The notes under the pieces were generated by a model, which saw only the letters and a program-made list of their open reading frames with translations, made no database searches and was not told the DNA's origin. DNA of 64,000 nt from Okamejei kenojei (Eukaryota), in NCBI GenBank assembly GCA_035221665.1, contig CM069136.1, positions 20,460,001 through 20,524,000 of the forward strand. Reading direction: 5' to 3'. Below, one piece after another: positions 1 through 32,044 of this stretch (positions are counted from its first letter, which is position 1; each line of letters opens with the position of its first letter). A program made the translations under genes and the position numbers.

Positions 1-646
1 ATGAAGAAAGGATATCAGGAAGCATTAATTATTCAAAGGAATTCAACACATTTCAAAAAAAACTATCGGCATGGTCCTTTCAACATGGCTGAAAAGGAAG
101 AATGTCTGTGCTTGGTGCAGCAGAGAAGATTCTGTTAGACTGAAAGACAACCTCTACTTTTATAATTTCAGGAAATGAGCATGCTTTTCAATTGTGTAAG
201 TCCTTTGCAACAGCCCTTGACTTCATTAACCATCCACTAGCATTCTCTTTTATCTTGCACAATCAACTCAGTCTCTGATGAAGTCGCAACTCCTTTATAC
301 CCTGTAGTCGTGACAATCCCTCCACATTTTGCATTTGTTCCATGTCTCTAAATGTGTCATCTGCATCTATTCATCATCATGTTGAAAATAATTTGATCTA
401 AAACTTGATCAATGGCTCTTGGGCAAAGCATGCTGGCCAGTCAATTCAGAAATGACATTGATCTCATTTTGCTTACCTAGTCAGAACATGCCCAGTTTTC
501 CCAATTTAATTTCCTATTTCATTGCAGACACAAATATTCCAATATTCAGCAATGAACATAGATCCCATGACCTCAATACACCTACACTTTTACATCAATT
601 ACTTGGTTTTAAACCTGAGACAAACTTGGGAAGATTTGCTACTTAC

Positions 647-712
647 AAGTCGGGGATGTGCTTGCGGCTGGAGTGCTGCCGGTCCCTGCAGTTGTAGATG
701 GCGCAGCGGTGG
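647..712 (-). CDS. Micro-exon A (66 nt), representative copy: (S)TAAPSTTAGTGSTPAAS(T/S)SPT
   Basis: Minus strand reads aatttttgctcattggtatcctctag|CCACCGCTGCG...TCCCCGACTT|gtaagt. It is ~65% GC inside an AT-rich unit and symmetric phase 1-1. Confidence 0.85.
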
Positions 713-3700
713 CTAGAGGATACCAATGAGCAAAAATTATTGAAAGGAAATTCAACCCTATTCCTTAAACATTCAACATGATCTTTCCTTACATATATGA
801 AAATAAAATTAATACTCACACGATGCCGCAGAGAAAATATTGCGACAAGCAAGTAGTCAGTTTATCTGTCATATCAGTAAATGAATCTGTTTTTCAATTG
901 TGTATGCTCATCGCAACACCTTTACCCACCCACTGCCGCTTCCTTGTATTTTGCACATTCACCCTCTGCATCAGGTTGCCACTCTTCCTTTATATTCCAT
1001 TGCAGTGACAATTCTCCAACTTTTGCCCATTTCCCTGAATGCCTGTAACCTGAAACATAAGCTTTGGCACTTGGGCAAAAGATGCTGGACAGCCACCTCA
1101 GAAATGTCTAACCTCGTCAGAATTTGCTCAGTATTTGACATTTGTTTTCAAAATCACTAATGTATTGGTGGGTGTCAAATAATTTGATCTGGAAATACAT
1201 ATATATCACATGGTGTTCTCTCGGTATGTGGTTTTTGCTGCAGTTGTAGTAATGCCTGTTCCTCAGTTGGGATGTGCCCCACAGATCAAATATAATAAGA
1301 AATGATAATAATTACAATTGAGTGAGAGACTGTCATTTTTGTATGCACGATAATTATAACATGGTTTCAATGACATATACAATAGGCGAGTGGAGTGAAT
1401 GAATCCATCATTTTTCCTGTTGCTGTGTTCACACTTTTTATCGCAATGCTTTGGACCTGTTATGACTGACCTGGGGGCTGAATGGGCACACAAGCCAATT
1501 TGTAGTTTCACCATTAACAACATCCGTCTCAAGAGCGGAGACGCTGTTAATGATATTTGTCATCAATTTCTTGGTTAATGCCATAAATTGACAATGTTCT
1601 GTTAAAAGACTGCATCATTTCACACATCGTAAACAACACTTTTAGTGAATGGCGTTTTAACCAATGGGCTGTTTTCAAAGGAGCCATGCTTGATGTATAC
1701 ATATTTCATTATTCTGATTTGTATCCTAGAAATTATTACCTGAACACACCTTAACCAGCACATTGAAAAGTTGGCTTTACATACAAGATAAACTTATCAT
1801 GAACTCAGACTCACAGGTGGTTGGGCCAGGAGTTGCAGGGATCCCCGTCACTGAAATTGTACTTAGTGCTGTAATGAAGAAAGGATATCAGGAAGCATTA
1901 ATTATTCAAAGGAATTCAACACATTTCAAAAAAAACTATCGGCATGGTCCTTTCAACATGGCTGAAAAGGAAGAATGTCTGTGCTTGGTGCAGCAGAGAA
2001 GATTCTGTTAGACTGAAAGACAACCTCTACTTTTATAATTTCAGGAAATGAGCATGCTTTTCAATTGTGTAAGTCCTTTGCAACAGCCCTTGACTTCATT
2101 AACCATCCACTAGCATTCTCTTTTATCTTGCACAATCAACTCAGTCTCTGATGAAGTCGCAACTCCTTTATACCCTGTAGTCGTGACAATCCCTCCACAT
2201 TTTGCATTTGTTCCATGTCTCTAAATGTGTCATCTGCATCTATTCATCATCATGTTGAAAATAATTTGATCTAAAACTTGATCAATGGCTCTTGGGCAAA
2301 GCATGCTGGCCAGTCAATTCAGAAATGACATTGATCTCATTTTGCTTACCTAGTCAGAACATGCCCAGTTTTCCCAATTTAATTTCCTATTTCATTGCAG
2401 ACACAAATATTCCAATATTCAGCAATGAACATAGATCCCATGACCTCAATACACCTACACTTTTACATCAATTACTTGGTTTTAAACCTGAGACAAACTT
2501 GGGAAGATTTGCTACTTACAAGTCGGGGATGAGCTTGCGGCTGGAGTGCTGCCGGTCCCTGCAGTTGTAGATGGCGCAGCGGTGGCTAGAGGATACCAAT
2601 GAGCAAAAATTATTGAAAGGAAATTCAACCCTATTCCTTAAACATTCAGCATGATCTTTCCTTACATATATGAAAATAAAATTAATACTCACACGATGCC
2701 GCAGAGAAAATATTGCGACAAGCAAGTAGTCAGTTTATCTGTCATATCAGTAAATGAATCTGTTTTTCAATTGTGTATGCTCATCGCAACACCTTTACCC
2801 ACCCACTGCCGCTTCCTTGTATTTTGCACATTCACCCTCTGCATCAGGTTGCCACTCTTCCTTTATATTCCATTGCAGTGACAATTCTCCAACTTTTGCC
2901 CATTTCCCTGAATGCCTGTAACCTGAAACATAAGCTTTGGCACTTGGGCAAAAGATGCTGGACAGCCACCTCAGAAATGTCTAACCTCGTCAGAATTTGC
3001 TCAGTATTTGACATTTGTTTTCAAAATCACTAAATGTATTGGTGGGTGTCAAATAATTTGATCTGGAAATACATATATATCACATGGTGTTCTCTCGGTA
3101 TGTGGTTTTTGCTGCAGTTGTAGTAATGCCTGTTCCTCAGTTGGGATGTGCCCCACAGATCAAATATAATAAGAAATGATAATAATTACAATTGAGTGAG
3201 AGACTGTCATTTTTGTATGCACGATAATTATAACATGGTTTCAATGACATATACAATAGGCGAGTGGAGTGAATGAATCCATCATTTTTCCTGTTGCTGT
3301 GTTCACACTTTTTATCGCAATGCTTTGGACCTGTTATGACTGACCTGGGGGCTGAATGGGCACACAAGCCAATTTGTAGTTTCACCATTAACAACATCGT
3401 CTCAAGAGCAGAGACGCTGTTAATGATATTTGTCATCAATTTCTTGGTTAATGCCATAAATTGACAATGTTCTGTTAAAAGACTGCATCATTTCACACAT
3501 CGTAAACAACACTTTTAGTGAATGGCGTTTTAACCAATGGGCTGTTTTCAAAGGAGCCATGCTTGATGTATACATATTTCATTATTCTGATTTGTATCCT
3601 AGAAATTATTACCTGAACACACCTTAACCAGCACATTGAAAAGTTGGCTTTACATACAAGATAAACTTATCATGAACTCAGACTCACAGGTGGTTGGGCC

Positions 3701-6700
3701 AGGAGTTGCAGGGATCCCCGTCACTGAAATTGTACTTAGTGCTGTAATGAAGAAAGGATATCAGGAAGCATTAATTATTCAAAGGAATTCAACACATTTC
3801 AAAAAAAACTATCGGCATGGTCCTTTCAACATGGCTGAAAAGGAAGAATGTCTGTGCTTGGTGCAGCAGAGAAGATTCTGTTAGACTGAAAGACAACCTC
3901 TACTTTTATAATTTCAGGAAATGAGCATGCTTTTCAATTGTGTAAGTCCTTTGCAACAGCCCTTGACTTCATTAACCATCCACTAGCATTCTCTTTTATC
4001 TTGCACAATCAACTCAGTCTCTGATGAAGTCGCAACTCCTTTATACCCTGTAGTCGTGACAATCCCTCCACATTTTGCATTTGTTCCATGTCTCTAAATG
4101 TGTCATCTGCATCTATTCATCATCATGTTGAAAATAATTTGATCTAAAACTTGATCAATGGCTCTTGGGCAAAGCATGCTGGCCAGTCAATTCAGAAATG
4201 ACATTGATCTCATTTTGCTTACCTAGTCAGAACATGCCCAGTTTTCCCAATTTAATTTCCTATTTCATTGCAGACACAAATATTCCAATATTCAGCAATG
4301 AACATAGATCCCATGACCTCAATACACCTACACTTTTACATCAATTACTTGGTTTTAAACCTGAGACAAACTTGGGAAGATTTGCTACTTACAAGTCGGG
4401 GATGAGCTTGCGGCTGGAGTGCTGCCGGTCCCTGCAGTTGTAGATGGCGCAGCGGTGGCTAGAGGATACCAATGAGCAAAAATTATTGAAAGGAAATTCA
4501 ACCCTATTCCTTAAACATTCAGCATGATCTTTCCTTACATATATGAAAATAAAATTAATACTCACACGATGCCGCAGAGAAAATATTGCGACAAGCAAGT
4601 AGTCAGTTTATCTGTCATATCAGTAAATGAATCTGTTTTTCAATTGTGTATGCTCATCGCAACACCTTTACCCACCCACTGCCGCTTCCTTGTATTTTGC
4701 ACATTCACCCTCTGCATCAGGTTGCCACTCTTCCTTTATATTCCATTGCAGTGACAATTCTCCAACTTTTGCCCATTTCCCTGAATGCCTGTAACCTGAA
4801 ACATAAGCTTTGGCACTTGGGCAAAAGATGCTGGACAGCCACCTCAGAAATGTCTAACCTCGTCAGAATTTGCTCAGTATTTGACATTTGTTTTCAAAAT
4901 CACTAATGTATTGGTGGGTGTCAAATAATTTGATCTGGAAATACATATATATCACATGGTGTTCTCTCGGTATGTGGTTTTTGCTGCAGTTGTAGTAATG
5001 CCTGTTCCTCAGTTGGGATGTGCCCCACAGATCAAATATAATAAGAAATGATAATAATTACAATTGAGTGAGAGACTGTCATTTTTGTATGCACGATAAT
5101 TATAACATGGTCTCAATGGAATATACAATAGGCGAGTGGAGTGAATGAATCCATCATTTTTCCTGTTGCTGTGTTCACACTTTTTATCGCAATGCTTTGG
5201 ACCTGTTATGACTGACCTGGGGGCTGAATGGGCACACAAGCCAATTTGTAGTTTCACCATTAACAACATCGTCTCAAGAGCAGAGACGCTGTTAATGATA
5301 TTTGTCATCAATTTCTTGGTTAATGCCATAAATTGACAATGTTCTGTTAAAAGACTGCATCATTTCACACATCGTAAACAACACTTTCAGTGAATGGCGT
5401 TTTAACCAATGGGCTGTTTTCAAAGGAGCCATGCTTGATGTATACATATTTCATTATTCTGATTTGTATCCTAGAAATTATTACCTGAACACACCTTAAC
5501 CAGCACATTGAAAAGTTGGCTTTACATACAAGATAAACTTATCATGAACTCAGACTCACAGGTGGTTGGGCCAGGAGTTGCAGGGATCCCCGTCACTGAA
5601 ATTGTACTTAGTGCTGTAATGAAGAAAGGATATCAGGAAGCATTAATTATTCAAAGGAATTCAACACATTTCAAAAAAAACTATCGGCATGGTCCTTTCA
5701 ACATGGCTGAAAAGGAAGAATGTCTGTGCTTGGTGCAGCAGAGAAGATTCTGTTAGACTGAAAGACAACCTCTACTTTTATAATTTCAGGAAATGAGCAT
5801 GCTTTTCAATTGTGTAAGTCCTTTGCAACAGCCCTTGACTTCATTAACCATCCACTAGCATTCTCTTTTATCTTGCACAATCAACTCAGTCTCTGATGAA
5901 GTCGCAACTCCTTTATACCCTGTAGTCGTGACAATCCCTCCACATTTTGCATTTGTTCCATGTCTCTAAATGTGTCATCTGCATCTATTCATCATCATGT
6001 TGAAAATAATTTGATCTAAAACTTGATCAATGGCTCTTGGGCAAAGCATGCTGGCCAGTCAATTCAGAAATGACATTGATCTCATTTTGCTTACCTAGTC
6101 AGAACATGCCCAGTTTTCCCAATTTAATTTCCTATTTCATTGCAGACACAAATATTCCAATATTCAGCAATGAACATAGATCCCATGACCTCAATACACC
6201 TACACTTTTACATCAATTACTTGGTTTTAAACCTGAGACAAACTTGGGAAGATTTGCTACTTACAAGTCGGGGATGTGCTTGCGGCTGGAGTGCTGCCGG
6301 TCCCTGCAGTTGTAGATGGCGCAGCGGTGGCTAGAGGATACCAATGAGCAAAAATTATTGAAAGGAAATTCAACCCTATTCCTTAAACATTCAGCATGAT
6401 CTTTCCTTACATATATGAAAATAAAATTAATACTCACACGATGCCGCAGAGAAAATATTGCGACAAGCAAGTAGTCAGTTTATCTGTCATATCAGTAAAT
6501 GAATCTGTTTTTCAATTGTGTATGCTCATCGCAACACCTTTACCCACCCACTGCCGCTTCCTTGTATTTTGCACATTCACCCTCTGCATCAGGTTGCCAC
6601 TCTTCCTTTATATTCCATTGCAGTGACAATTCTCCAACTTTTGCCCATTTCCCTGAATGCCTGTAACCTGAAACATAAGCTTTGGCACTTGGGCAAAAGA

Positions 6701-9700
6701 TGCTGGACAGCCACCTCAGAAATGTCTAACCTCGTCAGAATTTGCTCAGTATTTGCCATTTGTATTCAAAATCACGAATGTATTGGTGGATGTCAAATAA
6801 TTTGATCTGGAAATACATATATATCACATGGTGTTCTCTCGGTATGTGGTTTTTGCTGCAGTTGTAGTAATGCCTGTTCTTCAGTTGGGATGTGCCCCAC
6901 AGATCAAATATTATAAGAAATGATAATAATTACAATTGAGTGAGAGACTGTCATTTTTGTATGCACGATAATTATAACATGGTCTCAATGAAATATACAA
7001 TAGGCGAGTGGAGTGAATGAATCCATCATTTTTCCTGTTGCTGTGTTCACACTTTTTATCGCAATGCTTTGGACCTGTTATGACTGACCTGGGGGCTGAA
7101 TGGGCACACAAGCCAATTTGTAGTTTCACCATTAACAACATCCGTCTCAAGAGCGGAGACGCTGTTAATGATATTTGTCATCAATTTCTTGGTTAATGCC
7201 ATAAATTGACAATGTTCTGTTAAAAGACTGCATCATTTCACACATCGTAAACAACACTTTTAGTGAATGGCGTTTTAACCAATGGGCTGTTTTCAAAGGA
7301 GCCATGCTTGATGTATACATATTTCATTATTCTGATTTGTATCCTAGAAATTATTACCTGAACACACCTTAACCAGCACATTGAAAAGTTGGCTTTACAT
7401 ACAAGATAAACTTATCATGAACTCAGACTCACAGGTGGTTGGGCCAGGAGTTGCAGGGATCCCCGTCACTGAAATTGTACTTAGTGCTGTAATGAAGAAA
7501 GGATATCAGGAAGCATTAATTATTCAAAGAAATTCAACACATTTCAAAAAAAACTATCGGCATGTTCCTTTCAACATGGCTTAAAAGGAAGAATGTCTGT
7601 GCTTGGTGCAGCAGAGAAGATTCTGTTAGACTGAAAGACAACCTCTACTTTTATAATTTCAGGAAATGAGCATGCTTTTCAATTGTGTAAGTCCTTTGCA
7701 ACAGCCCTTGGCTTCATTAACCATCCACTAGCATTCTCTTTTATCTTGCACAATCAACTCAGTCTCTGATGAAGTCGCAACTCCTTTATACCCTGTAGTC
7801 GTGACAATCCCTCCACATTTTGCATTTGTTCCATGTCTCTAAATGTGTCATCTGCATCTATTCATCATCATGTTGAAAATAATTTGATCTAAAACTTGAT
7901 CAATGGCTCTTGGGCAAAGCATGCTGGCCAGTCAATTCAGAAATGACATTGATCTCATTTTGCTTACCTAGTCAGAACATGCCCAGTTTTCCCAATTTAA
8001 TTTCCTATTTCATTGCAGACACAAATATTCCAATATTCAGCAATGAACATAGATCCCATGACCTCAATACACCTACACTTTTACATCAATTACTTGGTTT
8101 TAAACCTGAGACAAACTTGGGAAGATTTGCTACTTACAAGTCGGGGATGTGCTTGCGGCTGGAGTGCTGCCGGTCCCTGCAGTTGTAGATGGCGCAGCGG
8201 TGGCTAGAGGATACCAATGAGCAAAAATTATTGAAAGGAAATTCAACCCTATTCCTTAAACATTCAGCATGATCTTTCCTTACATATATGAAAATAAAAT
8301 TAATACTCACACGATGCCGCAGAGAAAATATTGCGACAAGCAAGTAGTCAGTTTATCTGTCATATCAGTAAATGAATCTGTTTTTCAATTGTGTATGCTC
8401 ATCGCAACACCTTTACCCACCCACTGCCGCTTCCTTGTATTTTGCACATTCACCCTCTGCATCAGGTTGCCACTCTTCCTTTATATTCCATTGCAGTGAC
8501 AATTCTCCAACTTTTGCCCATTTCCCTGAATGCCTGTAACCTGAAACATAAGCTTTGGCACTTGGGCAAAAGATGCTGGACAGCCACCTCAGAAATGTCT
8601 AACCTCGTCAGAATTTGCTCAGTATTTGACATTTGTTTTCAAAATCACGAATGTATTGGTGGGTGTCAAATAATTTGATCTGGAAATACATATATATCAC
8701 ATGGTGTTCTCTCGGTATGTGGTTTTTGCTGCAGTTGTAGTAATGCCTGTTCCTCAGTTGGGATGTGCCCCACAGATCAAATATAATAAGAAATGATAAT
8801 AATTACAATTGAGTGAGAGACTGTCATTTTTGTATGCACGATAATTATAACATGGTCTCAATGAAATATACAATAGGCGAGTGGAGTGAATGAATCCATC
8901 ATTTTTCCTGTTGCTGTGTTCACACTTTTTATCGCAATGCTTTGGACCTGTTATGACTGACCTGGGGGCTGAATGGGCACACAAGCCAATTTGTAGTTTC
9001 ACCATTAACAACATCGTCTCAAGAGCGGAGACGCTGTTAATGATATTTGTCATCAATTTCTTGGTTAATGCCATAAATTGACAATGTTCTGTTAAAAGAC
9101 TGCATCATTTCACACATCGTAAACAACACTTTTAGTGAATGGCGTTTTAACCAATGGGCTGTTTTCAAAGGAGCCATGCTTGATGTATACATATTTCATT
9201 ATTCTGATTTGTATCCTAGAAATTATTACCTGAACACACCTTAACCAGCACATTGAAAAGTTGGCTTTACATACAAGATAAACTTATCATGAACTCAGAC
9301 TCACAGGTGGTTGGGCCAGGAGTTGCAGGGATCCCCGTCACTGAAATTGTACTTAGTGCTGTAATGAAGAAAGGATATCAGGAAGCATTAATTATTCAAA
9401 GGAATTCAACACATTTCAAAAAAAACTATCGGCATGGTCCTTTCAACATGGCTGAAAAGGAAGAATGTCTGTGCTTGGTGCAGCAGAGAAGATTCTGTTA
9501 GACTGAAAGACAACCTCTACTTTTATAATTTCAGGAAATGAGCATGCTTTTCAATTGTGTAAGTCCTTTGCAACAGCCCTTGGCTTCATTAACCATCCAC
9601 TAGCATTCTCTTTTATCTTGCACAATCAACTCAGTCTCTGATGAAGTCGCAACTCCTTTATACCCTGTAGTCGTGACAATCCCTCCACATTTTGCATTTG

Positions 9701-12700
9701 TTCCATGTCTCTAAATGTGTCATCTGCATCTATTCATCATCATGTTGAAAATAATTTGATCTAAAACTTGATCAATGGCTCTTGGGCAAAGCATGCTGGC
9801 CAGTCAATTCAGAAATGACATTGATCTCATTTTGCTTACCTAGTCAGAACATGCCCAGTTTTCCCAATTTAATTTCCTATTTCATTGCAGACACAAATAT
9901 TCCAATATTCAGCAATGAACATAGATCCCATGACCTCAATACACCTACACTTTTACATCAATTACTTGGTTTTAAACCTGAGACAAACTTGGGAAGATTT
10001 GCTACTTACAAGTCGGGGATGAGCTTGCGGCTGGAGTGCTGCCGGTCCCTGCAGTTGTAGATGGCGCAGCGGTGGCTAGAGGATACCAATGAGCAAAAAT
10101 TATTGAAAGGAAATTCAACCCTATTCCTTAAACATTCAGCATGATCTTTCCTTACATATATGAAAATAAAATTAATACTCACACGATGCCGCAGAGAAAA
10201 TATTGCGACAAGCAAGTAGTCAGTTTATCTGTCATATCAGTAAATGAATCTGTTTTTCAATTGTGTATGCTCATCGCAACACCTTTACCCACCCACTGCC
10301 GCTTCCTTGTATTTTGCACATTCACCCTCTGCATCAGGTTGCCACTCTTCCTTTATATTCCATTGCAGTGACAATTCTCCAACTTTTGCCCATTTCCCTG
10401 AATGCCTGTAACCTGAAACATAAGCTTTGGCACTTGGGCAAAAGATGCTGGACAGCCACCTCAGAAATGTCTAACCTCGTCAGAATTTGCTCAGTATTTG
10501 ACATTTGTTTTCAAAATCACTAATGTATTGGTGGGTGTCAAATAATTTGATCTGGAAATACATATATATCACATGGTGTTCTCTCGGTATGTGGTTTTTG
10601 CTGCAGTTGTAGTAATGCCTGTTCCTCAGTTGGGATGTGCCCCACAGATCAAATATAATAAGAAATGATAATAATTACAATTGAGTGAGAGACTGTCATT
10701 TTTGTATGCACGATAATTATAACATGGTCTCAATGAAATATACAATAGGCGAGTGGAGTGAATGAATCCATCATTTTTCCTGTTGCTGTGTTCACACTTT
10801 TTATCGCAATGCTTTGGACCTGTTATGACTGACCTGGGGGCTGAATGGGCACACAAGCCAATTTGTAGTTTCACCATTAACAACATCGTCTCAAGAGCGG
10901 AGACGCTGTTAATGATATTTGTCATCAATTTCTTGGTTAATGCCATAAATTGACAATGTTCTGTTAAAAGACTGCATCATTTCACACATCGTAAACAACA
11001 CTTTTAGTGAATGGCGTTTTAACCAATGGGCTGTTTTCAAAGGAGCCATGCTTGATGTATACATATTTCATTATTCTGATTTGTATCCTAGAAATTATTA
11101 CCTGAACACACCTTAACCAGCACATTGAAAAGTTGGCTTTACATACAAGATAAACTTATCATGAACTCAGACTCACAGGTGGTTGGGCCAGGAGTTGCAG
11201 GGATCCCCGTCACTGAAATTGTACTTAGTGCTGTAATGAAGAAAGGATATCAGGAAGCATTAATTATTCAAAGGAATTCAACACATTTCAAAAAAAACTA
11301 TCGGCATGGTCCTTTCAACATGGCTGAAAAGGAAGAATGTCTGTGCTTGGTGCAGCAGAGAAGATTCTGTTAGACTGAAAGACAACCTCTACTTTTATAA
11401 TTTCAGGAAATGAGCATGCTTTTCAATTGTGTAAGTCCTTTGCAACAGCCCTTGACTTCATTAACCATCCACTAGCATTCTCTTTTATCTTGCACAATCA
11501 ACTCAGTCTCTGATGAAGTCGCAACTCCTTTATACCCTGTAGTCGTGACAATCCCTCCACATTTTGCATTTGTTCCATGTCTCTAAATGTGTCATCTGCA
11601 TCTATTCATCATCATGTTGAAAATAATTTGATCTAAAACTTGATCAATGGCTCTTGGGCAAAGCATGCTGGCCAGTCAATTCAGAAATGACATTGATCTC
11701 ATTTTGCTTACCTAGTCAGAACATGCCCAGTTTTCCCAATTTAATTTCCTATTTCATTGCAGACACAAATATTCCAATATTCAGCAATGAACATAGATCC
11801 CATGACCTCAATACACCTACACTTTTACATCAATTACTTGGTTTTAAACCTGAGACAAACTTGGGAAGATTTGCTACTTACAAGTCGGGGATGAGCTTGC
11901 GGCTGGAGTGCTGCCGGTCCCTGCAGTTGTAGATGGCGCAGCGGTGGCTAGAGGATACCAATGAGCAAAAATTATTGAAAGGAAATTCAACCCTATTCCT
12001 TAAACATTCAACATGATCTTTCCTTACATATATGAAAATAAAATTAATACTCACACGATGCCGCAGAGAAAATATTGCGACAAGCAAGTAGTCAGTTTAT
12101 CTGTCATATCAGTAAATGAATCTGTTTTTCAATTGTGTATGCTCATCGCAACACCTTTACCCACCCACTGCCGCTTCCTTGTATTTTGCACATTCACCCT
12201 CTGCATCAGGTTGCCACTCTTCCTTTATATTCCATTGCAGTGACAATTCTCCAACTTTTGCCCATTTCCCTGAATGCCTGTAACCTGAAACATAAGCTTT
12301 GGCACTTGGGCAAAAGATGCTGGACAGCCACCTCAGAAATGTCTAACCTCGTCAGAATTTGCTCAGTATTTGACATTTGTTTTCAAAATCACGAATGTAT
12401 TGGTGGGTGTCAAATAATTTGATCTGGAAATACATATATATCACATGGTGTTCTCTCGGTATGTGGTTTTTGCTGCAGTTGTAGTAATGCCTGTTCCTCA
12501 GTTGGGATGTGCCCCACAGATCAAATATAATAAGAAATGATAATAATTACAATTGAGTGAGAGACTGTCATTTTTGTATGCACGATAATTATAACATGGT
12601 TTCAATGACATATACAATAGGCGAGTGGAGTGAATGAATCCATCATTTTTCCTGTTGCTGTGTTCACACTTTTTATCGCAATGCTTTGGACCTGTTATGA

Positions 12701-18700: not shown

Positions 18701-21700
18701 GAAATTGTACTTAGTGCTGTAATGAAGAAAGGATATCAGGAAGCATTAATTATTCAAAGGAATTCAACACATTTCAAAAAAAAACTATCGGCATGGTCCT
18801 TTCAACATGGCTGAAAAGGAAGAATGTCTGTGCTTGGTGCAGCAGAGAAGATTCTGTTAGACTGAAAGACAACCTCTACTTTTATAATTTCAGGAAATGA
18901 GCATGCTTTTCAATTGTGTAAGTCCTTTGCAACAGCCCTTGACTTCATTAACCATCCACTAGCATTCTCTTTTATCTTGCACAATCAACTCAGTCTCTGA
19001 TGAAGTCGCAACTCCTTTATACCCTGTAGTCGTGACAATCCCTCCACATTTTGCATTTGTTCCATGTCTCTAAATGTGTCATCTGCATCTATTCATCATC
19101 ATGTTGAAAATAATTTGATTCTAAAACTTGATCAATGGCTCTTGGGCAAAGCATGCTGGCCAGTCAATTCAGAAATGACATTGATCTCATTTTGCTTACC
19201 TAGTCAGAACATGCCCAGTTTTCCCAATTTAATTTCCTATTTCATTGCAGATATTTCCAATATTCAGCAATGAACATAGATCCCATGACCTCAATACACC
19301 TACACTTTACATCAATTACTTGGTTTTAAACCTGAGACAAACTTGGGAAGATTTGCTACTTACAAGTCGGGGATGAGCTTGCGGCTGGAGTGCTGCCGGT
19401 CCCTGCAGTTGTAGATGGCGCAGCGGTGGCTAGAGGATACCAATGAGCAAAAATTATTGAAAGGAAATTCAACCCTATTCCTTAAACATTCAGCATGATC
19501 TTTCCTTACATATATGAAAATAAAATTAATACTCACACGATGCCGCAGAGAAAATATTGCGACAAGCAAGTAGTCATATCAGTTTATCTGTCATATCAGT
19601 ACATCAACTCATCTTTACACCTTTACCCACACCACTGCCGCTTCCTTGTATTTTGCACATTCACCCTCTGCATCAGGTTGCCACTCTTCCTTTATTTCCA
19701 TTGCAGTGACAATTCTCCAACTTTTGCCCATTTCCCTGAATGCCTGTAACCTGAAACATAAGCTTTGGCACTTGGGCAAAAGATGCTGGACAGCCACCTC
19801 AGAAATGTCTAACCTCGTCAGAATTTGCTCAGTATTTGACATTTGTTTTCAAAATTGGTGGGTGTCAAATAATATTGGGTGGTGTTCTCTCGGTATGTGG
19901 TTTTTGCTGCAGTTGTAATGCCTGTTCCTCAGTTGGGATGTGCCCCACAGATCAAATATAATAAGAAATGATAATAATTACAATTGAGTGAGAGACTGTC
20001 ATTTTTGTATGCACGATAATTATAACATGGTCTCAATGAATATACAATAGGCGAGTGGAGTGAATGAATCCATCATTTTTCCTGTTGCTGTGTTCACACT
20101 TTTTATCGCAATGCTTTGGACCTGTTATGACTGACCTGGGGGCTGAATGGGCACACAAGCCAATTTGTAGTTTCACCATTAACAACATCGTCTCAAGAGC
20201 AGGAGACGCTGTTAATGATATTTGTCATCAATTTCTTGGTTAATGCCATAAATTGACAATGTTCTGTTAAAAGACTGCATCATTTCACACATCGTAAACA
20301 ACACTTTTAGTGAATGGCGTTTTAACCAATGGGCTGTTTTCAAAGGAGCCATGCTTGATGTATACATATTTCATTATTCTGATTTGTATCCTAGAAATTA
20401 TTACCTGAACACACCTTAACCAGCACATTGAAAAGTTGGCTTTACATACAAGATAAACTTATCATGAACTCAGACTCACAGGTGGTTGGGCCAGGAGTTG
20501 CAGGGATCCCCGTCACTGAAATTGTACTTAGTGCTGTAATGAAGAAAGGATATCAGGAAGCATTAATTATTCAAAGGAATTCAACACATTTCAAAAAAAA
20601 CTATCGGCATGGTCCTTTCAACATGGCTGAAAAGGAAGAATGTCTGTGCTTGGTGCAGCAGAGAAGATTCTGTTAGACTGAAAGACAACCTCTACTTTTA
20701 TAATTTCAGGAAATGAGCATGCTTTTCAATTGTGTAAGTCCTTTGCAACAGCCCTTGACTTCATTAACCATCCACTAGCATTCTCTTTTATCTTGCACAA
20801 TCAACTCAGTCTCTGATGAAGTCGCAACTCCTTTATACCCTGTAGTCGTGACAATCCCTCCACATTTTGCATTTGTTCCATGTCTCTAAATGTGTCATCT
20901 GCATCTATTCATCATCATGTTGAAAATAATTTGATCTAAAACTTGATCAATGGCTCTTGGGCAAAGCATGCTGGCCAGTCAATTCAGAAATGACATTGAT
21001 CTCATTTTGCTTACCTAGTCAGAACATGCCCAGTTTTCCCAATTTAATTTCCTATTTCATTGCAGACACAAATATTCCAATATTCAGCAATGAACATAGA
21101 TCCCATGACCTCAATACACCTACACTTTTACATCAATTACTTGGTTTTAAACCTGAGACAAACTTGGGAAGATTTGCTACTTACAAGTCGGGGATGAGCT
21201 TGCGGCTGGAGTGCTGCCGGTCCCTGCAGTTGTAGATGGCGCAGCGGTGGCTAGAGGATACCAATGAGCAAAAATTATTGAAAGGAAATTCAACCCTATT
21301 CCTTAAACATTCAACATGATCTTTCCTTACATATATGAAAATAAAATTAATACTCACACGATGCCGCAGAGAAAATATTGCGACAAGCAAGTAGTCAGTT
21401 TATCTGTCATATCAGTAAATGAATCTGTTTTTCAATTGTGTATGCTCATCGCAACACCTTTACCCACCCACTGCCGCTTCCTTGTATTTTGCACATTCAC
21501 CCTCTGCATCAGGTTGCCACTCTTCCTTTATATTCCATTGCAGTGACAATTCTCCAACTTTTGCCCATTTCCCTGAATGCCTGTAACCTGAAACATAAGC
21601 TTTGGCACTTGGGCAAAAGATGCTGGACAGCCACCTCAGAAATGTCTAACCTCGTCAGAATTTGCTCAGTATTTGACATTTGTTTTCAAAATCACTAATG

Positions 21701-24275
21701 TATTGGTGGGTGTCAAATAATTTGATCTGGAAATACATATATATCACATGGTGTTCTCTCGGTATGTGGTTTTTGCTGCAGTTGTAGTAATGCCTGTTCC
21801 TCAGTTGGGATGTGCCCCACAGATCAAATATAATAAGAAATGATAATAATTACAATTGAGTGAGAGACTGTCATTTTTGTATGCACGATAATTATAACAT
21901 GGTCTCAATGAATATACAATAGGCGAGTGGAGTGAATGAATCCATCATTTTTCCTGTTGCTGTGTTCACACTTTTTATCGCAATGCTTTGGACCTGTTAT
22001 GACTGACCTGGGGGCTGAATGGGCACACAAGCCAATTTGTAGTTTCACCATTAACAACATCGTCTCAAGAGCGAGACGCTGTTAATGATATTTGTCATCA
22101 ATTTCTTGGTTAATGCCATAAATTGACAATGTTCTGTTAAAAGACTGCATCATTTCACACATCGTAAACAACACTTTTAGTGAATGGCGTTTTAACCAAT
22201 GGGCTGTTTTCAAAGGAGCCATGCTTGATGTATACATATTTCATTATTCTGATTTGTATCCTAGAAATTATTACCTGAACACACCTTAACCAGCACATTG
22301 AAAAGTTGGCTTTACATACAAGATAAACTTATCATGAACTCAGACTCACAGGTGGTTGGGCCAGGAGTTGCAGGGATCCCCGTCACTGAAATTGTACTTA
22401 GTGCTGTAATGAAGAAAGGATATCAGGAAGCATTAATTATTCAAAGGAATTCAACACATTTCAAAAAAAACTATCGGCATGGTCCTTTCAACATGGCTGA
22501 AAAGGAAGAATGTCTGTGCTTGGTGCAGCAGAGAAGATTCTGTTAGACTGAAAGACAACCTCTACTTTTATAATTTCAGGAAATGAGCATGCTTTTCAAT
22601 TGTGTAAGTCCTTTGCAACAGCCCTTGACTTCATTAACCATCCACTAGCATTCTCTTTTATCTTGCACAATCAACTCAGTCTCTGATGAAGTCGCAACTC
22701 CTTTATACCCTGTAGTCGTGACAATCCCTCCACATTTTGCATTTGTTCCATGTCTCTAAATGTGTCATCTGCATCTATTCATCATCATGTTGAAAATAAT
22801 TTGATCTAAAACTTGATCAATGGCTCTTGGGCAAAGCATGCTGGCCAGTCAATTCAGAAATGACATTGATCTCATTTTGCTTACCTAGTCAGAACATGCC
22901 CAGTTTTCCCAATTTAATTTCCTATTTCATTGCAGACACAAATATTCCAATATTCAGCAATGAACATAGATCCCATGACCTCAATACACCTACACTTTTA
23001 CATCAATTACTTGGTTTTAAACCTGAGACAAACTTGGGAAGATTTGCCACTTACAAGTCGGGGATGAGCTTGCGGCTGGAGTGCTGCCGGTCCCTGCAGT
23101 TGTAGATGGCGCAGCGGTGGCTAGAGGATACCAATGAGCAAAAATTATTGAAAGGAAATTCAACCCTATTCCTTAAACATTCAACATGATCTTTCCTTAC
23201 ATATATGAAAATAAAATTAATACTCACACGATGCCGCAGAGAAAATATTGCGACAAGCAAGTAGTCAGTTTATCTGTCATATCAGTAAATGAATCTGTTT
23301 TTCAATTGTGTATGCTCATCGCAACACCTTTACCCACCCACTGCCGCTTCCTTGTATTTTGCACATTCACCCTCTGCATCAGGTTGCTACTCTTCCTTTA
23401 TATTCCATTGCAGTGACAATTCTCCAACTTTTGCCCATTTCCCTGAATGCCTGTAACCTGAAACATAAGCTTTGGCACTTGGGCAAAAGATGCTGGACAG
23501 CCACCTCAGAAATGTCTAACCTCGTCAGAATTTGCTCAGTATTTGACATTTGTTTTCAAAATCACTAATGTATTGGTGGGTGTCAAATAATTTGATCTGG
23601 AAATACATATATATCACATGGTGTTCTCTCGGTATGTGGTTTTTGCTGAAGTTGTAGTAATGCCTGTTCCTCAGTTGGGATGTGCCCCACAGATCAAATA
23701 TAATAAGAAATGATAATAATTACAATTGAGTGAGAGACTGTCATTTTTGTATGCACGATAATTATAACATGGTCTCAATGGAATATACAATAGGCGAGTG
23801 GAGTGAATGAATCCATCATTTTTCCTGTTGCTGTGTTCACACTTTTTATCGCAATGCTTTGGACCTGTTATGACTGACCTGGGGGCTGAATGGGCACACA
23901 AGCCAATTTGTAGTTTCACCATTAACAACATCGTCTCAAGAGCGGAGACGCTGTTAATGATATTTGTCATCAATTTCTTGGTTAATGCCATAAATTGACA
24001 ATGTTCTGTTAAAAGACTGCATCATTTCACACATCGTAAACAACACTTTTAGTGAATGGCGTTTTAACCAATGGGCTGTTTTCAAAGGAGCCATGCTTGA
24101 TGTATACATATTTCATTATTCTGATTTGTATCCTAGAAATTATTACCTGAACACACCTTAACCAGCACATTGAAAAGTTGGCTTTACATACAAGATAAAC
24201 TTATCATGAACTCAGACTCACAGGTGGTTGGGCCAGGAGTTGCAGGGATCCCCGTCACTGAAATTGTACTTAGTG
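647..24275 (-). CDS. Internal part of a mucin-like gene: PTS domain encoded by alternating 54-nt (B) and 66-nt (A) micro-exons, 40 aa per repeat unit; 5' and 3' ends not seen
   Basis: Exon A copies: 647-712, 2520-2585, 4393-4458, 6265-6330, 8138-8203, 10010-10075, 11882-11947, 13754-13819, 15625-15690, 17497-17562, 19364-19429, 21185-21250, 23055-23120. Exon B copies: 1815-1868, 3688-3741, 5560-5613, 7433-7486, 9305-9358, 11177-11230, 13049-13102, 14919-14972, 16792-16845, 18663-18716, 20480-20533, 22350-22403, 24222-24275. Each has a pyrimidine-rich acceptor ending in AG, a GTRAGT donor, phase 1-1 and no stop. The joined peptide has 26/40 P+T+S. Damaged copies continue at ~24928-24995, ~26100-26154 and beyond. 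Confidence 0.85.
1223..1285 (-). pseudogene. Decayed third micro-exon (pseudo-exon) paralogous to exon A, present in every unit
   Basis: CAACTG-AGGAACAGGCATTACTACAACTGCA aligns with exon A CAACTGCAGGGACCGGCAGCACTCCAGCCGCA. It reads GTGITTTAAKTT and is followed in phase 1 by gagag (like a GT>GA mutated donor). There is no AG after the upstream pyrimidine-rich tract. Confidence 0.5.
1815..1868 (-). CDS. Micro-exon B (54 nt), representative copy: (S)LSTISVTGIPATPGPTT
   Basis: Minus strand reads cttcctgatatcctttcttcattacag|CACTAAGTACA...CCAACCACCT|gtgagt; symmetric phase 1-1. Confidence 0.85.
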
Positions 24276-27200
24276 CTGTAATGAAGAAAGGATATCAGGA
24301 AGCATTAATTATTCAAAGGAATTCAACACATTTCAAAAAAAACTATCGGCATGGTCCTTTCAACATGGCTGAAAAGGAAGAATGTCTGTGCTTGGTGCAG
24401 CAGAGAAGATTCTGTTAGACTGAAAGACAACCTCTACTTTTATAATTTCAGGAAATGAGCATGCTTTTCAATTGTGTAAGTCCTTTGCAACAGCCCTTGG
24501 CTTCATTAACCATCCACTAGCATTCTCTTTTATCTTGCACAATCAACTCAGTCTCTGATGAAGTCGCAACTCCTTTATACCCTGTAGTCGTGACAATCCC
24601 TCCACATTTTGCATTTGTTCCATGTCTCTAAATGTGTCATCTGCATCTATTCATCATCATGTTGAAAATAATTTGATCTAAAACTTGATCAATGGCTCTT
24701 GGGCAAAGCATGCTGGCCAGTCAATTCAGAAATGACATTGATCTCATTTTGCTTACCTAAGTCAGAACATGCCCAGTTTTCCCAATTTAATTTCCTATTT
24801 CATTGCAGACACAAATATTCCAATATTCAGCAATGAACATAGATCCCATGACCTCAATACACCTACACTTTTACATCAATTACTTGGTTTTAAACCTGAG
24901 ACAAACTTGGGAAGATTTGCTACTTACAAGTCTTGGGGATGTGCTTGCGGCTGGAGTGCTGCCGGTCCCTGCAGTTGTAGATGGCGCAGCGGTGGCTAGA
25001 GGATACCAATGAGCAAAAATTATTGAAAGGAAATTCAACCCTATTCCTTAAACATTCAGCATGATCTTTCCTTACATATATGAAAATAAAATTAATACTC
25101 ACACGATGCCGCAGAGAAAATATTGCGACAAGCAAAGTAGTCAGTTTATCTGTCATATCAGTAAATGAATCTGTTTTTCAATTGTGTATGCTCATCGCAA
25201 CACCTTTACCCACCCACTGCCGCTTCCTTGTATTTTGCACATTCACCCTCTGCATCAGGTTGCCACTCTTCCTTTATATTTCCATTGCAGTGACAATTTC
25301 TCCAACTTTTGCCCATTTCCCTGAATGCCTGTAACCTGAAACATAAGCTTTGGCACTTGGGCAAAAGATGCTGGACAGCCACCTCAGAAATGTCTAACCT
25401 CGTCAGAATTTGCTCAGTATTTGACATTTGTTTTCAAAATCACTAATGTATTGGTGGGTGTCAAATAATTTGATCTGGAAATACATATATATCACATGGT
25501 GTTCTCTCGGTATGTGGTTTTTGCTGAGTTGTAGTAATGCCTGTTCCTCAGTTGGGATGTGCCCCACAGATCAAATATAATAAGAAATGATAATAATTAC
25601 AATTGAGTGAGAGACTGTCATTTTTGTATGCACGATAATTATAACATGTTTCAATGACATATACAATAGGCGAGTGGAGTGAATGAATCCATCATTTTTC
25701 CTGTTGCTGTGTTCACACTTTTTATCGCAATGCTTTGGACCTGTTATGACTGACCTGGGGGCTGAATGGGCACACAAGCCAATTTGTAGTTTCACCATTA
25801 ACAACATCGTCTCAAGAGCAGAGACGCTGTTAATGATATTTGTCATCAATTTCTTGGTTAATGCCATAAATTGACAATGTTCTGTTAAAAGACTGCATCA
25901 TTTCACACATCGTAAACAACACTTTTAGTGAATGGCGTTTTAACCAATGGGCTGTTTTCAAAGGAGCCATGCTTGATGTATACATATTTCATTATTCTGA
26001 TTTGTATCCTAGAAATTAATTACCTGAACACACCTTAACCAGCACATTGAAAAGTTGGCTTTAACATACAAGATAAACTTATCATGAACTCAGACTCACA
26101 GGTGGTTGGGCCAGGAGTTGCAGGGGATCCCCGTCACTGAAATTGTACTTAGTGCTGTAATGAAGAAAGGATATCAGGAAGCATTAATTATTCAAAGGAA
26201 TTCAACACATTTCAAAAAAAAACTATCGGCATGGTCCTTTCAACATGGCTGAAAAGGAAGAATGTCTGTGCTTGGTGCAGCAGAGAAGATTCTGTTAGAC
26301 TGAAAGACAACCTCTACTTTATAATTTCAGGAAATGAGCATGCTTTTCAATTGTGTAAGTCCTTTGCAACAGCCCTTGGCTTCATTAACCATCCACTAGC
26401 ATTCTCTTTTTTATCTTGCACAATCAACTCAGTCTCTGATGAAGTCGCAACTCCTTTATACCTGTAGTCGTGACAATCCCCTTCCACATTTTGCATTTGT
26501 TCCATGTCTCTAAATGTGTCATCTGCATCTATTCATCATCATGTTGAAAATAATTTGATCTAAAACTTGATCAATGGCTCTTGGGCAACAGCATGCTGGC
26601 CAGTCAATTCAGAAATGACATTGATCTCATTTTGCTTACCTAGTCAGAACATGCCCAGTTTTCCCAATTTAATTTCCTATTTCATTGCAGACACAAATAT
26701 TCCAATATTCAGCAATGAACATAGATCCCATGACCTCAATACACCTACACTTTTACATCAATTACTTGGTTTTAAACCTGAGACAAACTTGGGAAGATTT
26801 GCACCTTACAAGTCGGGGATGAGCTTGCGGCTGGTGCTGCCGGTCCCTGCAGTAGTAGATGGCGCTAGAGCGGTGGCTAGAGGATATACCAATGAGCAAA
26901 AATTATTGAAAGGAAATTTCAACCCTATTCCTTAAAACATTCAGCTTGATCTCTTCCTCGTACATATATGAAAATAAAAATTAAATACTACACCGATGCC
27001 GCAGAGAGAAAATATTGCGACAAGCAAGTAGTCAGTTTTATCTGTCATATCAGTAAATGAATCTGTTTTTTCAATTGTGTATGCTCATCGCAACACCTTT
27101 ACCACCCCACCCACTGCCGCTTCGCCTTGCAATTTTGACACATCACCCTCTGCATCAGGTTGCCACTCTTCTTTATATTCCATTGCAGTGAGACAATTTC

Positions 27201-30200
27201 TCAACTTTATTTTGCCCAATTTCCTTGAATGCCTGTAACCTGAAAACATAAGCTTTGGCATTGGGCAAAGATGCTGGACAGCCACCTCAGAAATGTCAAC
27301 CTCGTCAGAATTTGCTCAGTATTTGACATTTTGTTTTCAAAAGTCACAAATGTATTGGTGGGTGTCAAATATTTGATCTGGAAATACATATATATCACAT
27401 GGTGTTCTCTCGGTATGTGGTTTTGCTGCAGTTGTAGTAATGCTGTTCCTCAGTTGGTATGTGCCCCACAGATCATATTCCCAATAAATAAGAAATGATA
27501 ATAATTACAATTGAGTGAGGAGACTGTCATTTTTGTATGCACGATAAAATTTATAACATGGTTTCAATGACATATACAATACAATAGGCGAGTGGGAGTG
27601 ACCTATGAATCCATCAAAATTTTTCCCAGTCTAGCTGAGTATTCACACTTTTTATCGCAACGCGAATGTTAGGACCTCCTGTTAGGACTGACCTGGGCCC
27701 CCCCCGGCCTCAGCTCTCTGAATGGGCACACAAGCCAATTTGTAGTTTATCACCATTAACAACATCGTTCACTCAGAGGCAGAGACGCTGTTAATGATAT
27801 TTGTCATCAATTTCTTGGTTAATGCCATCAATTGACTCAAATGTTCTGTTAAAAGACTGCATCAATTTCACAACATCTAAACAACACTTTAGTGAATGGC
27901 GATTTAACAAAAAACCAATCGGGCTGATTAAAGGAGGCCCTAACAAGGATCTTATTGATGTATACTAGTATTCATTATTCAGATTTGTATCCTAGAAATA
28001 TTACCTGAACACACCTTAACCGAGCAGCATTGAAAAGTTTGCTATACATACAATATAAACTTATCAAGAACCTCATGTACACACACAGGTGGAGTTGGGC
28101 CAGAGTTTGCAGGGATCCCATCCACTTGAAATTGTAACTTAAGTTTGAGCTGTTAAGAAAAAGGAATCAGAAGCTTACAATTATTCAAAGGACATTCAAC
28201 ACATCTCAAAAAAAAACTATCGGGCATGGACTTCAAACATGGCTGAAAAGGAAGAATTTTTGTGCTTGGTGCAGCAGCAGAATATACTGTATATACTGAA
28301 ACAGAACCAAACATCTATTTATATAACTTATGTCCATAGGAAAATGTCTCAAAATAGCATATTACAAATTGGTCTGTCTTAACAGTCCTTTGCAAACATG
28401 CCCTTCCGACTCTTCAATCTAACTCATCCACTAGCATTCTCTTTTTAATCTTGCACAATCAACTCAGTCTCTGATAATTCGGCAACACCTTTATAATACC
28501 CTGTATTCGATGACAATCCCTCCCACATTTTGCATTTGTTCCATGTCTCAAAATGTGTTCATCTGCATCTAATCCACAACATCATGTTGAAAATAATTTT
28601 TGATACTAAAAACTTGATAACACTGTGCTCATAGGGCAAAGAATTGTGGCAGGCCAGATCTCAAATCAGAAAATGATGACATTCTGAACCTCAATTTCTT
28701 GCTTACCAAGTACAAAACAATGCCCAGATTCCACAATATCATAATTTCCTATTTCATTGCATAACTAGACAAATATTCCAACTATTACAGCAATCGACTT
28801 ATAATATCCCATGACCTCAATACACCAACACATTTACATCAATTACTTGGTTTTAAACCTGAGACAACTTGGAATATTTGCCACATACAAGTCGGGGAGG
28901 AGCTGCAGGCTGTAGTGCTAGCCGGTCCACCTGCCTCATGCGTACAGATGGCGCAGCGGGTGGCTGAGGGATAAAGAGAAAAAATTATTGAAGGAAATAT
29001 CAACCCATTCCTTAAACATTCAGCATGATCTTCTTCTTACATATATGAAAATAAAATTAATACTCACACGACTGACCGCAGGGAAAAATATTGCGACATG
29101 CAAGTAGGAAGTTTATTGTCATAATCAGTAAATGAATCTTTTCAATTGTGGTATGCTCATCGAAACACCTTTACCCACCATTGCGCTTCCTTGTATTTTG
29201 CACATCACCTCATGATCAGGTAGCCACTCATCATTAAAATCCATTGCAATTGCCAAACACCACAGATAATCCAATTTCCCTGTCATTCCTTTAAACGTGA
29301 ACATAAAATCATATTCACTATTTCAAAATAATCTGTACAATCCCCCCACATAAATTTCTAACCTCGTCAGCATTTGCACAGTAATGCCATTAGTCATTCA
29401 AAATCCAAATGTCATTGGTCGGGTGTCAAATAAATTGATCTGGAAATTAATAAATATCACTGGTTGTTCTCACGGTATGTGGTTTTTAGCTGCAGTTTTG
29501 TAGTAATGCTGTTCCTCAGTTGGGATGTGCCCCACAGATCAAATATACATACTACAATATAATAATTACAAAATATTTCTGCTCACTTACATAAATTAAA
29601 TCACTCAAAAACAAATTTAAACCAATACACCCCACTTCTATATTCTATAATCCACACAAAAACCCATAAATCATATAACCCCCAAAACATCCCCCCATCA
29701 AATCCATAAATTACCTCCTTTTTTCATAAATTTCACCACAAGCCAATTTCATATTCACAATCACCAAACCACCGACTCAAGCAGCCGGAGTCGCTGCCTT
29801 AACGATAATTGTCATCAATTTCTTTCCCCGTTAATGCCATAAATTGACCACTGTTCCTGTAAAAGACTGCATAATTTCAACAATCGTAAACAACACTTTT
29901 AGTGAATGGCGTTTTATACCAATGGGCAGTTTTCAAAGGAAGCCATTGTTGATGTATACATATTTTTATTATTCTGATTTGTTATCCTAGAAATTATTAC
30001 CTGAACCACATTAACCTGCACATTGAAAAGTTGGCTTTACATACAAGATTAACTTATCATGACAGACTCCACAGGTGGTTGGCCAGGAGTTGCAGGGGAT
30101 CCCCGTCACTGAAATTGTACTTAGTGCTGTAATGAAGAAAGGATATCAGGAAAGCATTAATGATTCAAAGGAATTCAACAAACATTTCAAAAAAAAACTA

Positions 30201-30943
30201 TCAGCATGGTCCTTTCAACTGGCTGAAAGGAAAGATGTCTGTGTTAGGTTGCAGCATCGAACTTAAACAATGATCTACATACCCCCACACCGCCACCACT
30301 CTACTTTATTTAATTTCAGGAAATAGGCATGTTTTTTTCAATTGTGTAAGCATTCTGCACGCCCTGACTTCATTAACCATTCCACTAGCATCTTCTTTAT
30401 CTTGCCAATCAACTCAGTCTCCCGATGAAGACGCAACTCCTGTATACCTGTAGTCGTGACAATCCCTCCAAGAGCACTTTGCATTTGTTCCATGTCTCTA
30501 TGTGTGTCATATCTGCATTGTTATTCATCATCATGTTGAAAAATTTGATCCTTAAAATTGATCAATGGATCTTGGGCAAAGCATGCACGGAGTAAATCGC
30601 AACCTCTGCATACCGATACTCATTTTGACTTACCTAGGTCAGAACATGCCCAGTTTTCACCAATCTATATTTACTATTTCACTGACTAGACACAAATATT
30701 ACAATATTCTGCATTGAACATAGATCCCATTGACCTCAATACACCTTCTCTGGGAATCATTTACTTGGTTTTTAAACTGAGACTACTTGGATGATTTGCT
30801 ACTTCAAGTCGCGGATGTGCTTGGGTAGGAGATATCTTTACCCATCCTAAATACTAATTCTCCCCTCTTAAAATTTACTCTTCAACACATTCCCCCAACA
30901 ATCCATTTTCCCAACCCCCACAAAACCCAACCTCATCACAAAC

Positions 30944-31443
30944 NNNNNNNNNNNNNNNNNNNNNNNNNNNNNNNNNNNNNNNNNNNNNNNNNNNNNNNNN
31001 NNNNNNNNNNNNNNNNNNNNNNNNNNNNNNNNNNNNNNNNNNNNNNNNNNNNNNNNNNNNNNNNNNNNNNNNNNNNNNNNNNNNNNNNNNNNNNNNNNNN
31101 NNNNNNNNNNNNNNNNNNNNNNNNNNNNNNNNNNNNNNNNNNNNNNNNNNNNNNNNNNNNNNNNNNNNNNNNNNNNNNNNNNNNNNNNNNNNNNNNNNNN
31201 NNNNNNNNNNNNNNNNNNNNNNNNNNNNNNNNNNNNNNNNNNNNNNNNNNNNNNNNNNNNNNNNNNNNNNNNNNNNNNNNNNNNNNNNNNNNNNNNNNNN
31301 NNNNNNNNNNNNNNNNNNNNNNNNNNNNNNNNNNNNNNNNNNNNNNNNNNNNNNNNNNNNNNNNNNNNNNNNNNNNNNNNNNNNNNNNNNNNNNNNNNNN
31401 NNNNNNNNNNNNNNNNNNNNNNNNNNNNNNNNNNNNNNNNNNN
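30944..31443. other. Scaffold gap (500 N)
   Basis: Exactly 500 N with low-quality sequence on both sides, so the true distance and orientation between the two halves are unknown. Confidence 0.99.
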
Positions 31444-32044
31444 CCCCCCCATAAATCCTTTAATTATATATTGTATGTATTTAATTTATCGTATCTCACA
31501 TCCCCATTTATGATCCCCCCCCCCTTTTTAACGGGAGCTGGTGCCGGGGTGGGGGCGGGTGTGGGCGTTACTGGTTGGCTCCTCTACAGGGGCAGGTCCG
31601 CCTGCTGCCGGGTCTCTCTCACTGTTGCACTCTAACCGCTGCTTGTCCTCGAGTGACCAGGGGTCAGCCCGGCTCCGAGGAGTGGAGCGGCCGAATGACG
31701 AGGCGGCGGCTGCAGCCTGTCCGAGAGCAGCTGAGAAAAGTCTGTTCTTGTTTTTCTTTGGTTTGATTTGTTATTTTGTTTTGGGGCCTCCGTCCGCACA
31801 GATTTATTTCCTCACGGGGTCTCCACGGACAGTTAATGTGAAAGTCACAGCTCATGAGCTAATACTTCCTGCCAAAGGTTTATTGGAGGAGAGAGATCTG
31901 GCAGGAACTCGGTAACTCCATCAAACTGCGAACAATTCTCCAGACAGCGAGAAACACTCGCTCCGATCCCGTCTAATCCGTGCCGTGCAGGGTAATCCGG
32001 CTGTCTGGCGCTGTCTCGCCCGCTCCAGCCCCCCCCTCAGGACT

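Follow-up and report, generated by a model that had tools for sequence, protein, structure and literature searches.

A satellite-like array of micro-exon cassettes as the probable PTS domain of a Muc19-type mucin gene in the skate Okamejei kenojei

Introduction

What, if anything, is encoded by a satellite-like array in the genome of the skate Okamejei kenojei, and to which gene does it belong? The array lies in a 64,000-nt stretch of assembly GCA_035221665.1 (2.76 Gb in total), contig CM069136.1 (C6 hereafter), positions 20,460,001–20,524,000, which we refer to as the window. There it occupies positions 1..30823 on the minus strand and consists of tandem units of 1873 nt, each made up of an exon B, an intron of ~1100 nt, an exon A, and an intron of ~650 nt. 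An initial annotation, based on the letters of the window, had interpreted these units as cassettes of micro-exons that encode the proline-, threonine-, and serine-rich (PTS) domain of a large mucin-like gene. The analysis presented here makes it likely that the array is the PTS domain of a Muc19-type gel-forming mucin gene located on C21, the C6 piece being either the misplaced middle of that domain or its other haplotype. Part of a mucin gene would then consist of protein-coding repeats that, together with their introns, evolve in the manner of a higher-order satellite and that assemblers break and misplace.

Results

A homology scan of the minus strand of the window located 16 copies of exon B and 16 of exon A, 13 of each being clean, and thereby reproduced the two micro-exons per unit, the intron sizes, and the 13 clean units of the initial annotation. 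A clean exon B is 54 nt long, preceded by the acceptor ...cattacag and followed by the donor gtgagt; a clean exon A is 66 nt long, with the acceptor ...cctctag and the donor gtaagt. The introns measure 1099–1102 nt from B to A (one of 1050 nt) and 647–652 nt from A to B, and both have a GC content of 37%, compared to 54% and 65% for the exons, in agreement with the GC enrichment noted earlier. Clean copies span positions 24275 down to 647. Those of exon B are found at 24222..24275 (the final clean exon on the gap side), 22350..22403, 20480..20533, 18663..18716, 16792..16845, 14919..14972, 13049..13102, 11177..11230, 9305..9358, 7433..7486, 5560..5613, 3688..3741, and 1815..1868, and those of exon A at 23055..23120, 21185..21250, 19364..19429, 17497..17562, 15625..15690, 13754..13819, 11882..11947, 10010..10075, 8138..8203, 6265..6330, 4393..4458, 2520..2585, and 647..712. 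A Ser/Thr variant site in exon A reads Thr in 4 of the 13 clean copies (647, 6265, 8138, and 15625). The central units are 99.3–100% identical to a reference unit and carry mosaic variants; one unit is 95.5% identical. Tandem Repeats Finder, with its period limit of 500, called no array in 1–30,830.

Spliced together, the two exons yield a 40-codon repeat with 11 Thr and 9 Ser (50%) and 6 Pro (15%), the remainder being only Ala, Gly, Ile, Leu, and Val. Charged, aromatic, Cys, and Asn residues do not occur, and this recomputed composition is the one first reported. Of the earlier statement that the exons are stop-free and of phase 1-1, the openness holds for the array as such; a second reading frame of the spliced repeat is, however, likewise stop-free, so that the array by itself does not set the frame. 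Phase 1 of the cassettes is set by flanking exons on C21 (see below).

Evidence for splicing came from a comparison of one unit (window 1900–3772) with contigs of four sequencing runs that share it, none of which is on record as RNA. Two of these, X1 and X2, are RNA-like and from the same study; X3 and X4 are DNA-like and derive from two other organisms. In both X1 and X2 there is a contig of 150 nt in which two joints occur. One leaps from 2585 to 3688 (1102 nt, CT..AC on the plus strand, corresponding to GT..AG in coding orientation) and the other leads back from 3741 to 2520, so that both ends of exon A at 2520..2585 and of exon B at 3688..3741 are joints in these contigs. The contigs represent a collapsed form of the 120-nt B-A repeat, which is intact. 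Their depth is 64.5 and 59.3, versus 0–3.2 on the introns. Exons A and B are thus spliced to each other in both orders, exactly at the two joints that the initial annotation had predicted. In the DNA-like runs X3 and X4, in contrast, no spliced joint was found despite coverage of 30/30 and 29/30 bins of the unit, and these runs include the genomic unit-to-unit joint; the two organisms thus carry the unit as well, with an identity of about 95%. A further X1 contig runs from a variant of A through a variant of B into a 236-nt loose end, the first bases of which match the terminal A' exon, present only on C21. No intronless copy of the array was seen among the 40 scored of 46 exon-A candidates. 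Exon-skipping joints of the A-A or B-B type were absent from the run contigs, in which skipping of a whole pair would not show.

The exons that flank such an array are found on C21, where they join it to one open frame of a gel-forming mucin. The mucin-like gene of the initial annotation therefore takes shape away from the window, at C21:16,920,717–17,084,422 on the plus strand. Our model comprises 56 exons (28 upstream, 23 edge PTS exons, and 5 downstream) and encodes 1801 residues with a single terminal stop; 25 central C21 cassette copies were left out of it. It begins with an ATG exon at C21:16,920,717 that is predicted to encode a hydrophobic stretch, a putative signal peptide, and to end in a phase-1 donor, similar to the N-terminus of protein P0003. 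Three VWD-C8-TIL units follow, with VWD matches at C21 16,929,007, 16,948,074, and 16,967,321, and these precede the PTS domain and share 53% identity with P0003 over 1218 columns; Pfam found VWD, C8, and TIL on single upstream exons. A predicted 29-nt linker exon then sets phase 1 for the PTS exons, which start with a Thr-rich one and continue through the A/B cassettes to the diverged A' exon; the model closes with a brief vWC-like segment and a cystine knot. The 23 edge PTS exons contribute 464 residues in frame, 70% of which are Ser, Thr, or Pro. No premature stop interrupts them or any of the 33 non-repeat exons.

All junctions of the model are AG/GT with the exception of two GC donors, and one donor was set at the canonical site that preserves a conserved Cys. 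The two GC-AG introns that the model requires are at L001:8361 and L003:8263. The 151-residue C-terminal part is 30–38% identical over ~135 residues to the C-termini of other mucins, its last exon is single-copy, and the last two exons, each with one half of the knot, scored 15.4 and 20.8 bits with Pfam Cys_knot, both under the 24-bit cut-off. At L004:8368–9242, the last D3 exon and the predicted linker exon are without two cysteines found in relatives; a disulphide was possibly lost there as a pair.

The gene is most likely a Muc19-type mucin, an assignment made because an LRRK2 exon lies upstream and because the gene falls on the Muc19 side of a tree. The exon, encoding the Roc domain, is at C21:16,753,295 (+) and matches human LRRK2 at E 1e-18; the mucin gene is on the same strand ~170 kb downstream, with no other VWD matches in between among the 150 scored of 185 in the genome, a scope that applies to all VWD matches below. 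LRRK2 on C21 was located by the Roc search but not by a COR-A search, whose 2 matches lay in other places. An ABCD gene is located at C21 16.24 Mb, and such a gene presumably also has its place near human MUC19. In humans, MUC19 and LRRK2 are in one region (PMC10557577). A quick-search tree was built from 40 D1–D3 regions chosen from 121, with neither Muc6 nor a verified Muc2 among them. In it the model groups as sister to P0003 plus P0001 (support 100), lies in a cartilaginous-fish clade (99), and falls on the Muc19 side against Muc5 (100). The closest proteins over D1–D3, among the matches listed, are a ‘mucin-19-like’ protein from Mustelus (P0003, 53%) and a ‘mucin-2-like’ protein from Rhincodon (P0001, 57%).

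The domain layout is in keeping with this assignment. Muc19 has three VWD-C8-TIL units, a PTS domain, no C-terminal VWD unit, and a cystine knot, and an arrangement lacking both a fourth VWD unit and CysD domains is the Muc19/Muc6 layout (PMC4948705). Downstream of the array on C21 no VWD-type match was present, and the CysD-bearing P0001 had no match in the assembled array region; the Muc2/Muc5 layout, with its D4 and CysD, is thus not the one seen. P0003 and P0001, in contrast to the skate gene, carry CysD after D3. A membrane mucin of the Muc13 type (SEA, EGF, transmembrane segment) does not fit, since a SEA search gave 2 matches among 73 scored, neither of them on C21 or C6, and since the model ends in a cystine knot. 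The C-terminal candidates put forward initially thus fared unevenly: VWD domains are present, but as three units on the N-terminal side, and the end is a cystine knot and not of the CysD, SEA/transmembrane, or ZP type. A search of the PDB with one D3 exon placed VWF first by summed repeats; it is not informative as to class, no Muc19 structure being among the matches.

How, then, does part of this domain come to be on C6? The 1.87-kb unit occurs at two places in the genome. On C21 the array extends over 16.987–17.067 Mb and is interrupted midway by a 500-N run (C21:17036516); it numbers 22 copies of exon B and 24 of exon A. On C6 it continues beyond the left edge of the window, as had been foreseen, to C6:20427630, and forms a 63-kb stretch with 27 B and 27 A copies that is bounded by two 500-N runs and contains units, two copies of a 5.2-kb transposon, and nothing else. 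The N run that ends the array contig in the window (30944..31443, unstranded) appears to be a scaffolding gap, because it has the same length as those at C6:20427130 and C21:17036516 and because errors mount toward all three. Indels number 0–7 per unit far from N runs and 56–157 near them, which is consistent with unpolished contig ends. In the window, the three copies of each exon nearest the gap lie in noisy units on the minus strand (24928..30823; A at 24995, 26876, and 28963, B at 26154, 28144, and 30126), whose scattered indels grow denser nearer the gap and which we read as such an end.

No mucin exons were detected on C6 in the 124 kb examined outside the N runs, and no VWD matches on C6. 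The C6 units share polymorphic sites with the central C21 units, and on both C6 and C21 the 3' junction of the 5.2-kb element falls on one and the same nucleotide of the unit, the copies being 97.8% identical. The C6 piece was probably scaffolded to the wrong chromosome. It would either belong in the middle of the array on C21 or represent the other haplotype of that array. In the first case the PTS domain would come to about 50 units (2,000 residues), in the second to about 38 units (1,500 residues). Past the N run, at 31444–64000, the window has a GC content of 46–73% and dense G-rich minisatellites, compared to 39% GC in the adjoining array; this abrupt change is in keeping with a scaffold join.

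The history of the array can be read from its cassettes. B and A cassettes, each taken as intron plus exon, align with 68.6% identity over 542 columns, at a score of 332 versus 95 ± 9 in 40 shuffles, and a common origin follows from their being alignable, introns included, well above the shuffles. The sequences thus indicate that one ancestral cassette was duplicated and the pair then amplified, like a higher-order satellite repeat. Edge cassettes are older than the central units, and their introns hold insertions. The 19 edge exons compared have 0 internal indels in 1170 nt, versus 35 in 5446 nt of flanking intron, and one edge exon has a +3 extension. Of the distinct amino-acid changes, 4 of 27 leave the set Ser/Thr/Pro/Ala/Gly/Val/Ile/Leu, versus 35% expected (P=0.017), although such P values are optimistic, since cassette copies share history. 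Constraint on the array exons is on frame and composition only. Two edge cassettes have no exon B at all, and beyond A' there are two cassettes in decay; the symmetric phase permits such losses. With all cassettes of phase 1-1, any exon gained, lost, or skipped would keep the frame.

In the proposed mechanism, the array would form the central O-glycosylated domain of a secreted gel-forming mucin. Judging from the architecture alone, and by analogy with MUC2, MUC5, and MUC19, the protein would be secreted and polymerise by disulphides through its D domains and cystine knot, with a glycosylated rod of 1,500–2,000 residues.

Several observations weigh against the assignment of the array to the C21 gene. 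The RNA status of X1 and X2 is a guess, X1 being flagged ‘probably DNA’, and the evidence consists of contigs of one study; it covers two array junctions and one loose end, the remaining junctions being predicted. The tree is the result of a quick search and is without Muc6 or verified Muc2. Substitutions in the edge exons (99/1170) are not below the intron rate (375/5446), and nonsynonymous changes are not depleted (27 versus 12 distinct). The variant patterns of C6 and C21 gave no register for a unit-by-unit overlap, and two copies of the 5.2-kb element on C6 face one visible on C21. Finally, the central C21 copies (17,012,638–17,046,164) are broken as assembled, with indels in 13/13 A and 5/12 B, and even where C6 is clean, a single A copy has a +1. 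We read the central C21 indels as read errors, because the load climbs from the low values far from the gaps to the high ones near them and because the indels differ from copy to copy.

Some of these points could instead be taken to mean that C6 carries a genuine second copy, mucin cassettes having moved there and become an orphan satellite without promoter or flanking exons, all transcripts coming from C21. The assembly does place the array on C6. Of the two transposon copies there, the first is joined differently at its 5' side, and the second is succeeded by units unlike those following the C21 copy. Yet both ends of the C6 array coincide with 500-N gaps, with no assembled junction to unique C6 DNA; the C21 array is itself gapped in the middle, and its centre shares variants with the C6 units, which are cleaner in frame than expected for an orphan. 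We therefore regard a second copy as unlikely. Slightly less likely still is a transcribed pseudogene, or mostly truncated or circular RNA, with real central frameshifts and an A-to-B joint that is a back-splice. Indels do affect 18 of the 25 central C21 exon copies, and on a one-unit reference a back-splice cannot be told from linear splicing of A to the next B; however, the non-repeat exons and edge cassettes read through stop-free, the indels follow distance to the gaps, the RNA-like contig has an intact 120-nt repeat, and the second contig is linear into A' and beyond. That the array is non-coding satellite DNA, its exon-like pieces being chance or relic, seems hardly credible. Its near-identity over introns and exons resembles satellite homogenisation and there is no conservation at the amino-acid level, but such DNA would explain neither the deeply covered RNA-like contigs joined precisely at GT-AG sites, for which the candidates scored include no intronless DNA source, nor why the array is in phase with the D3 exons before it and the C-terminal exons after it.

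Discussion

Reading the array as the PTS domain of the C21 mucin gene invites comparison with known systems. Human MUC19 has as its main repeat a 30-bp variable-number tandem repeat (VNTR) in an exon of ~12 kb (PMC10557577; PMC13345508). The skate PTS domain, in contrast, consists wholly of micro-exons, and its repeat unit is a 1.87-kb block of two exons and two introns. Mammalian MUC19 reportedly has many small exons as well. The initial annotation regarded multi-exon PTS domains as exceptional and named chicken Muc13. That precedent stands: in its PTS domain each of at least 12 repeats of 20 residues has an exon to itself, and these exons are nearly identical; an assembly gap falls within the array, as in the skate; and alternative splicing was proposed to control length (PMC1552070). 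Chicken Muc13, however, is a membrane mucin (SEA, transmembrane segment), whereas the skate gene would be secreted and have ~38–51 units with two alternating exon types.

A further precedent, which lowers the surprise, is Xenopus MucXS/Otogl, a gel-forming protein with three VWD domains, a multi-exon central domain, and a cystine knot (PMC5789918). MucXS, annotated as otogelin-like, alternates Cys-rich and PTS repeats, whereas the skate repeat has no Cys. Frog FIM-C.1 is polymorphic through alternative splicing (PMC7177656), and the accessible text on MucXS and the frog integumentary mucins does not describe intron homogenisation (PMC5789918, PMC7177656). Multi-exon PTS domains were thus known already in chicken Muc13 and frog MucXS; what sets the skate case apart is the size of the array, the satellite-like two-exon unit, the mixed designs within one cluster, and the probable misassembly.

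A 9-mer of the skate repeat was found in none of the 242 proteins compared (the best 120 of 912 and of 650 matches). Database models of shark and skate mucins have many isoforms, which suggests that such arrays have already been predicted automatically in relatives. Our literature search, to which subscription papers were mostly closed, returned no paper on the exon structure of shark or skate mucins.

The gene is one of several. Grouped manually, the VWD matches on C21 form roughly nine gene-sized groups around LRRK2, at 16.27–19.19 Mb, and three of the C21 groups were sampled for the design of the PTS domain. In two of these paralogues the domain sits in large exons, whose open frames run to 284 and 1186 residues. 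In the third, phase-1 micro-exons (at least 10, each 51–63 nt long) lie in duplicated cassettes and form a second and unrelated array (L044–L049, C21:18.308–18.337 Mb) that shows no DNA likeness to the 1.87-kb unit, introns included. Behind this array come a CysD-like exon and a VWD unit that is the fourth of its gene, and the paralogue matches the ‘mucin-2-like’ little-skate (Leucoraja) protein P0012 with 64–98% identity. Two PTS designs thus stand side by side in the C21 cluster. It is conceivable, and we propose it only tentatively, that paralogues of the Muc19 cluster switched repeatedly between large VNTR exons and cassette arrays, the arrays being a frame-safe dial for length and glycan pattern. 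Unequal crossing-over would then vary length between individuals and exon skipping would vary it within one animal.

Three Muc19 paralogues have been reported in the ghost shark (PMC4948705), and the roughly nine groups around LRRK2 point to a richer Muc19 set in skates. The stickleback spiggins, like the C21 cluster, show tandem gene expansion (PMC4989455). Neighbouring paralogues with large exons or micro-exon cassettes offer a natural comparison for the evolution of mucin repeat domains, and the splicing idea raised for chicken Muc13 in 2006 can now be tested on a high-depth transcript. A second cluster of VWD genes, with several groups, lies at C18:45.9–47.4 Mb, a further sign of mucin expansion in Okamejei kenojei.

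The 5.2-kb element is a broken retrotransposon with an inverted repeat at one end, inserted in the A-to-B intron of three units (L011:565–5776 on C21, and two copies in L024–L025 on C6). Some of its fragments resemble what we take to be the reverse transcriptase and tyrosine recombinase of DIRS-type elements; Pfam gave no family on the one fragment scanned. A sister element, 92% identical, lies at C21:17.098–17.103 Mb. Beyond the gap, the window contains, at 43783–56749 on the minus strand, the 3' part of a giant protocadherin gene, presumably of the Dachsous type, with cadherin repeats in three open frames followed by a membrane-like stretch and a cytoplasmic tail that ends at 43783.

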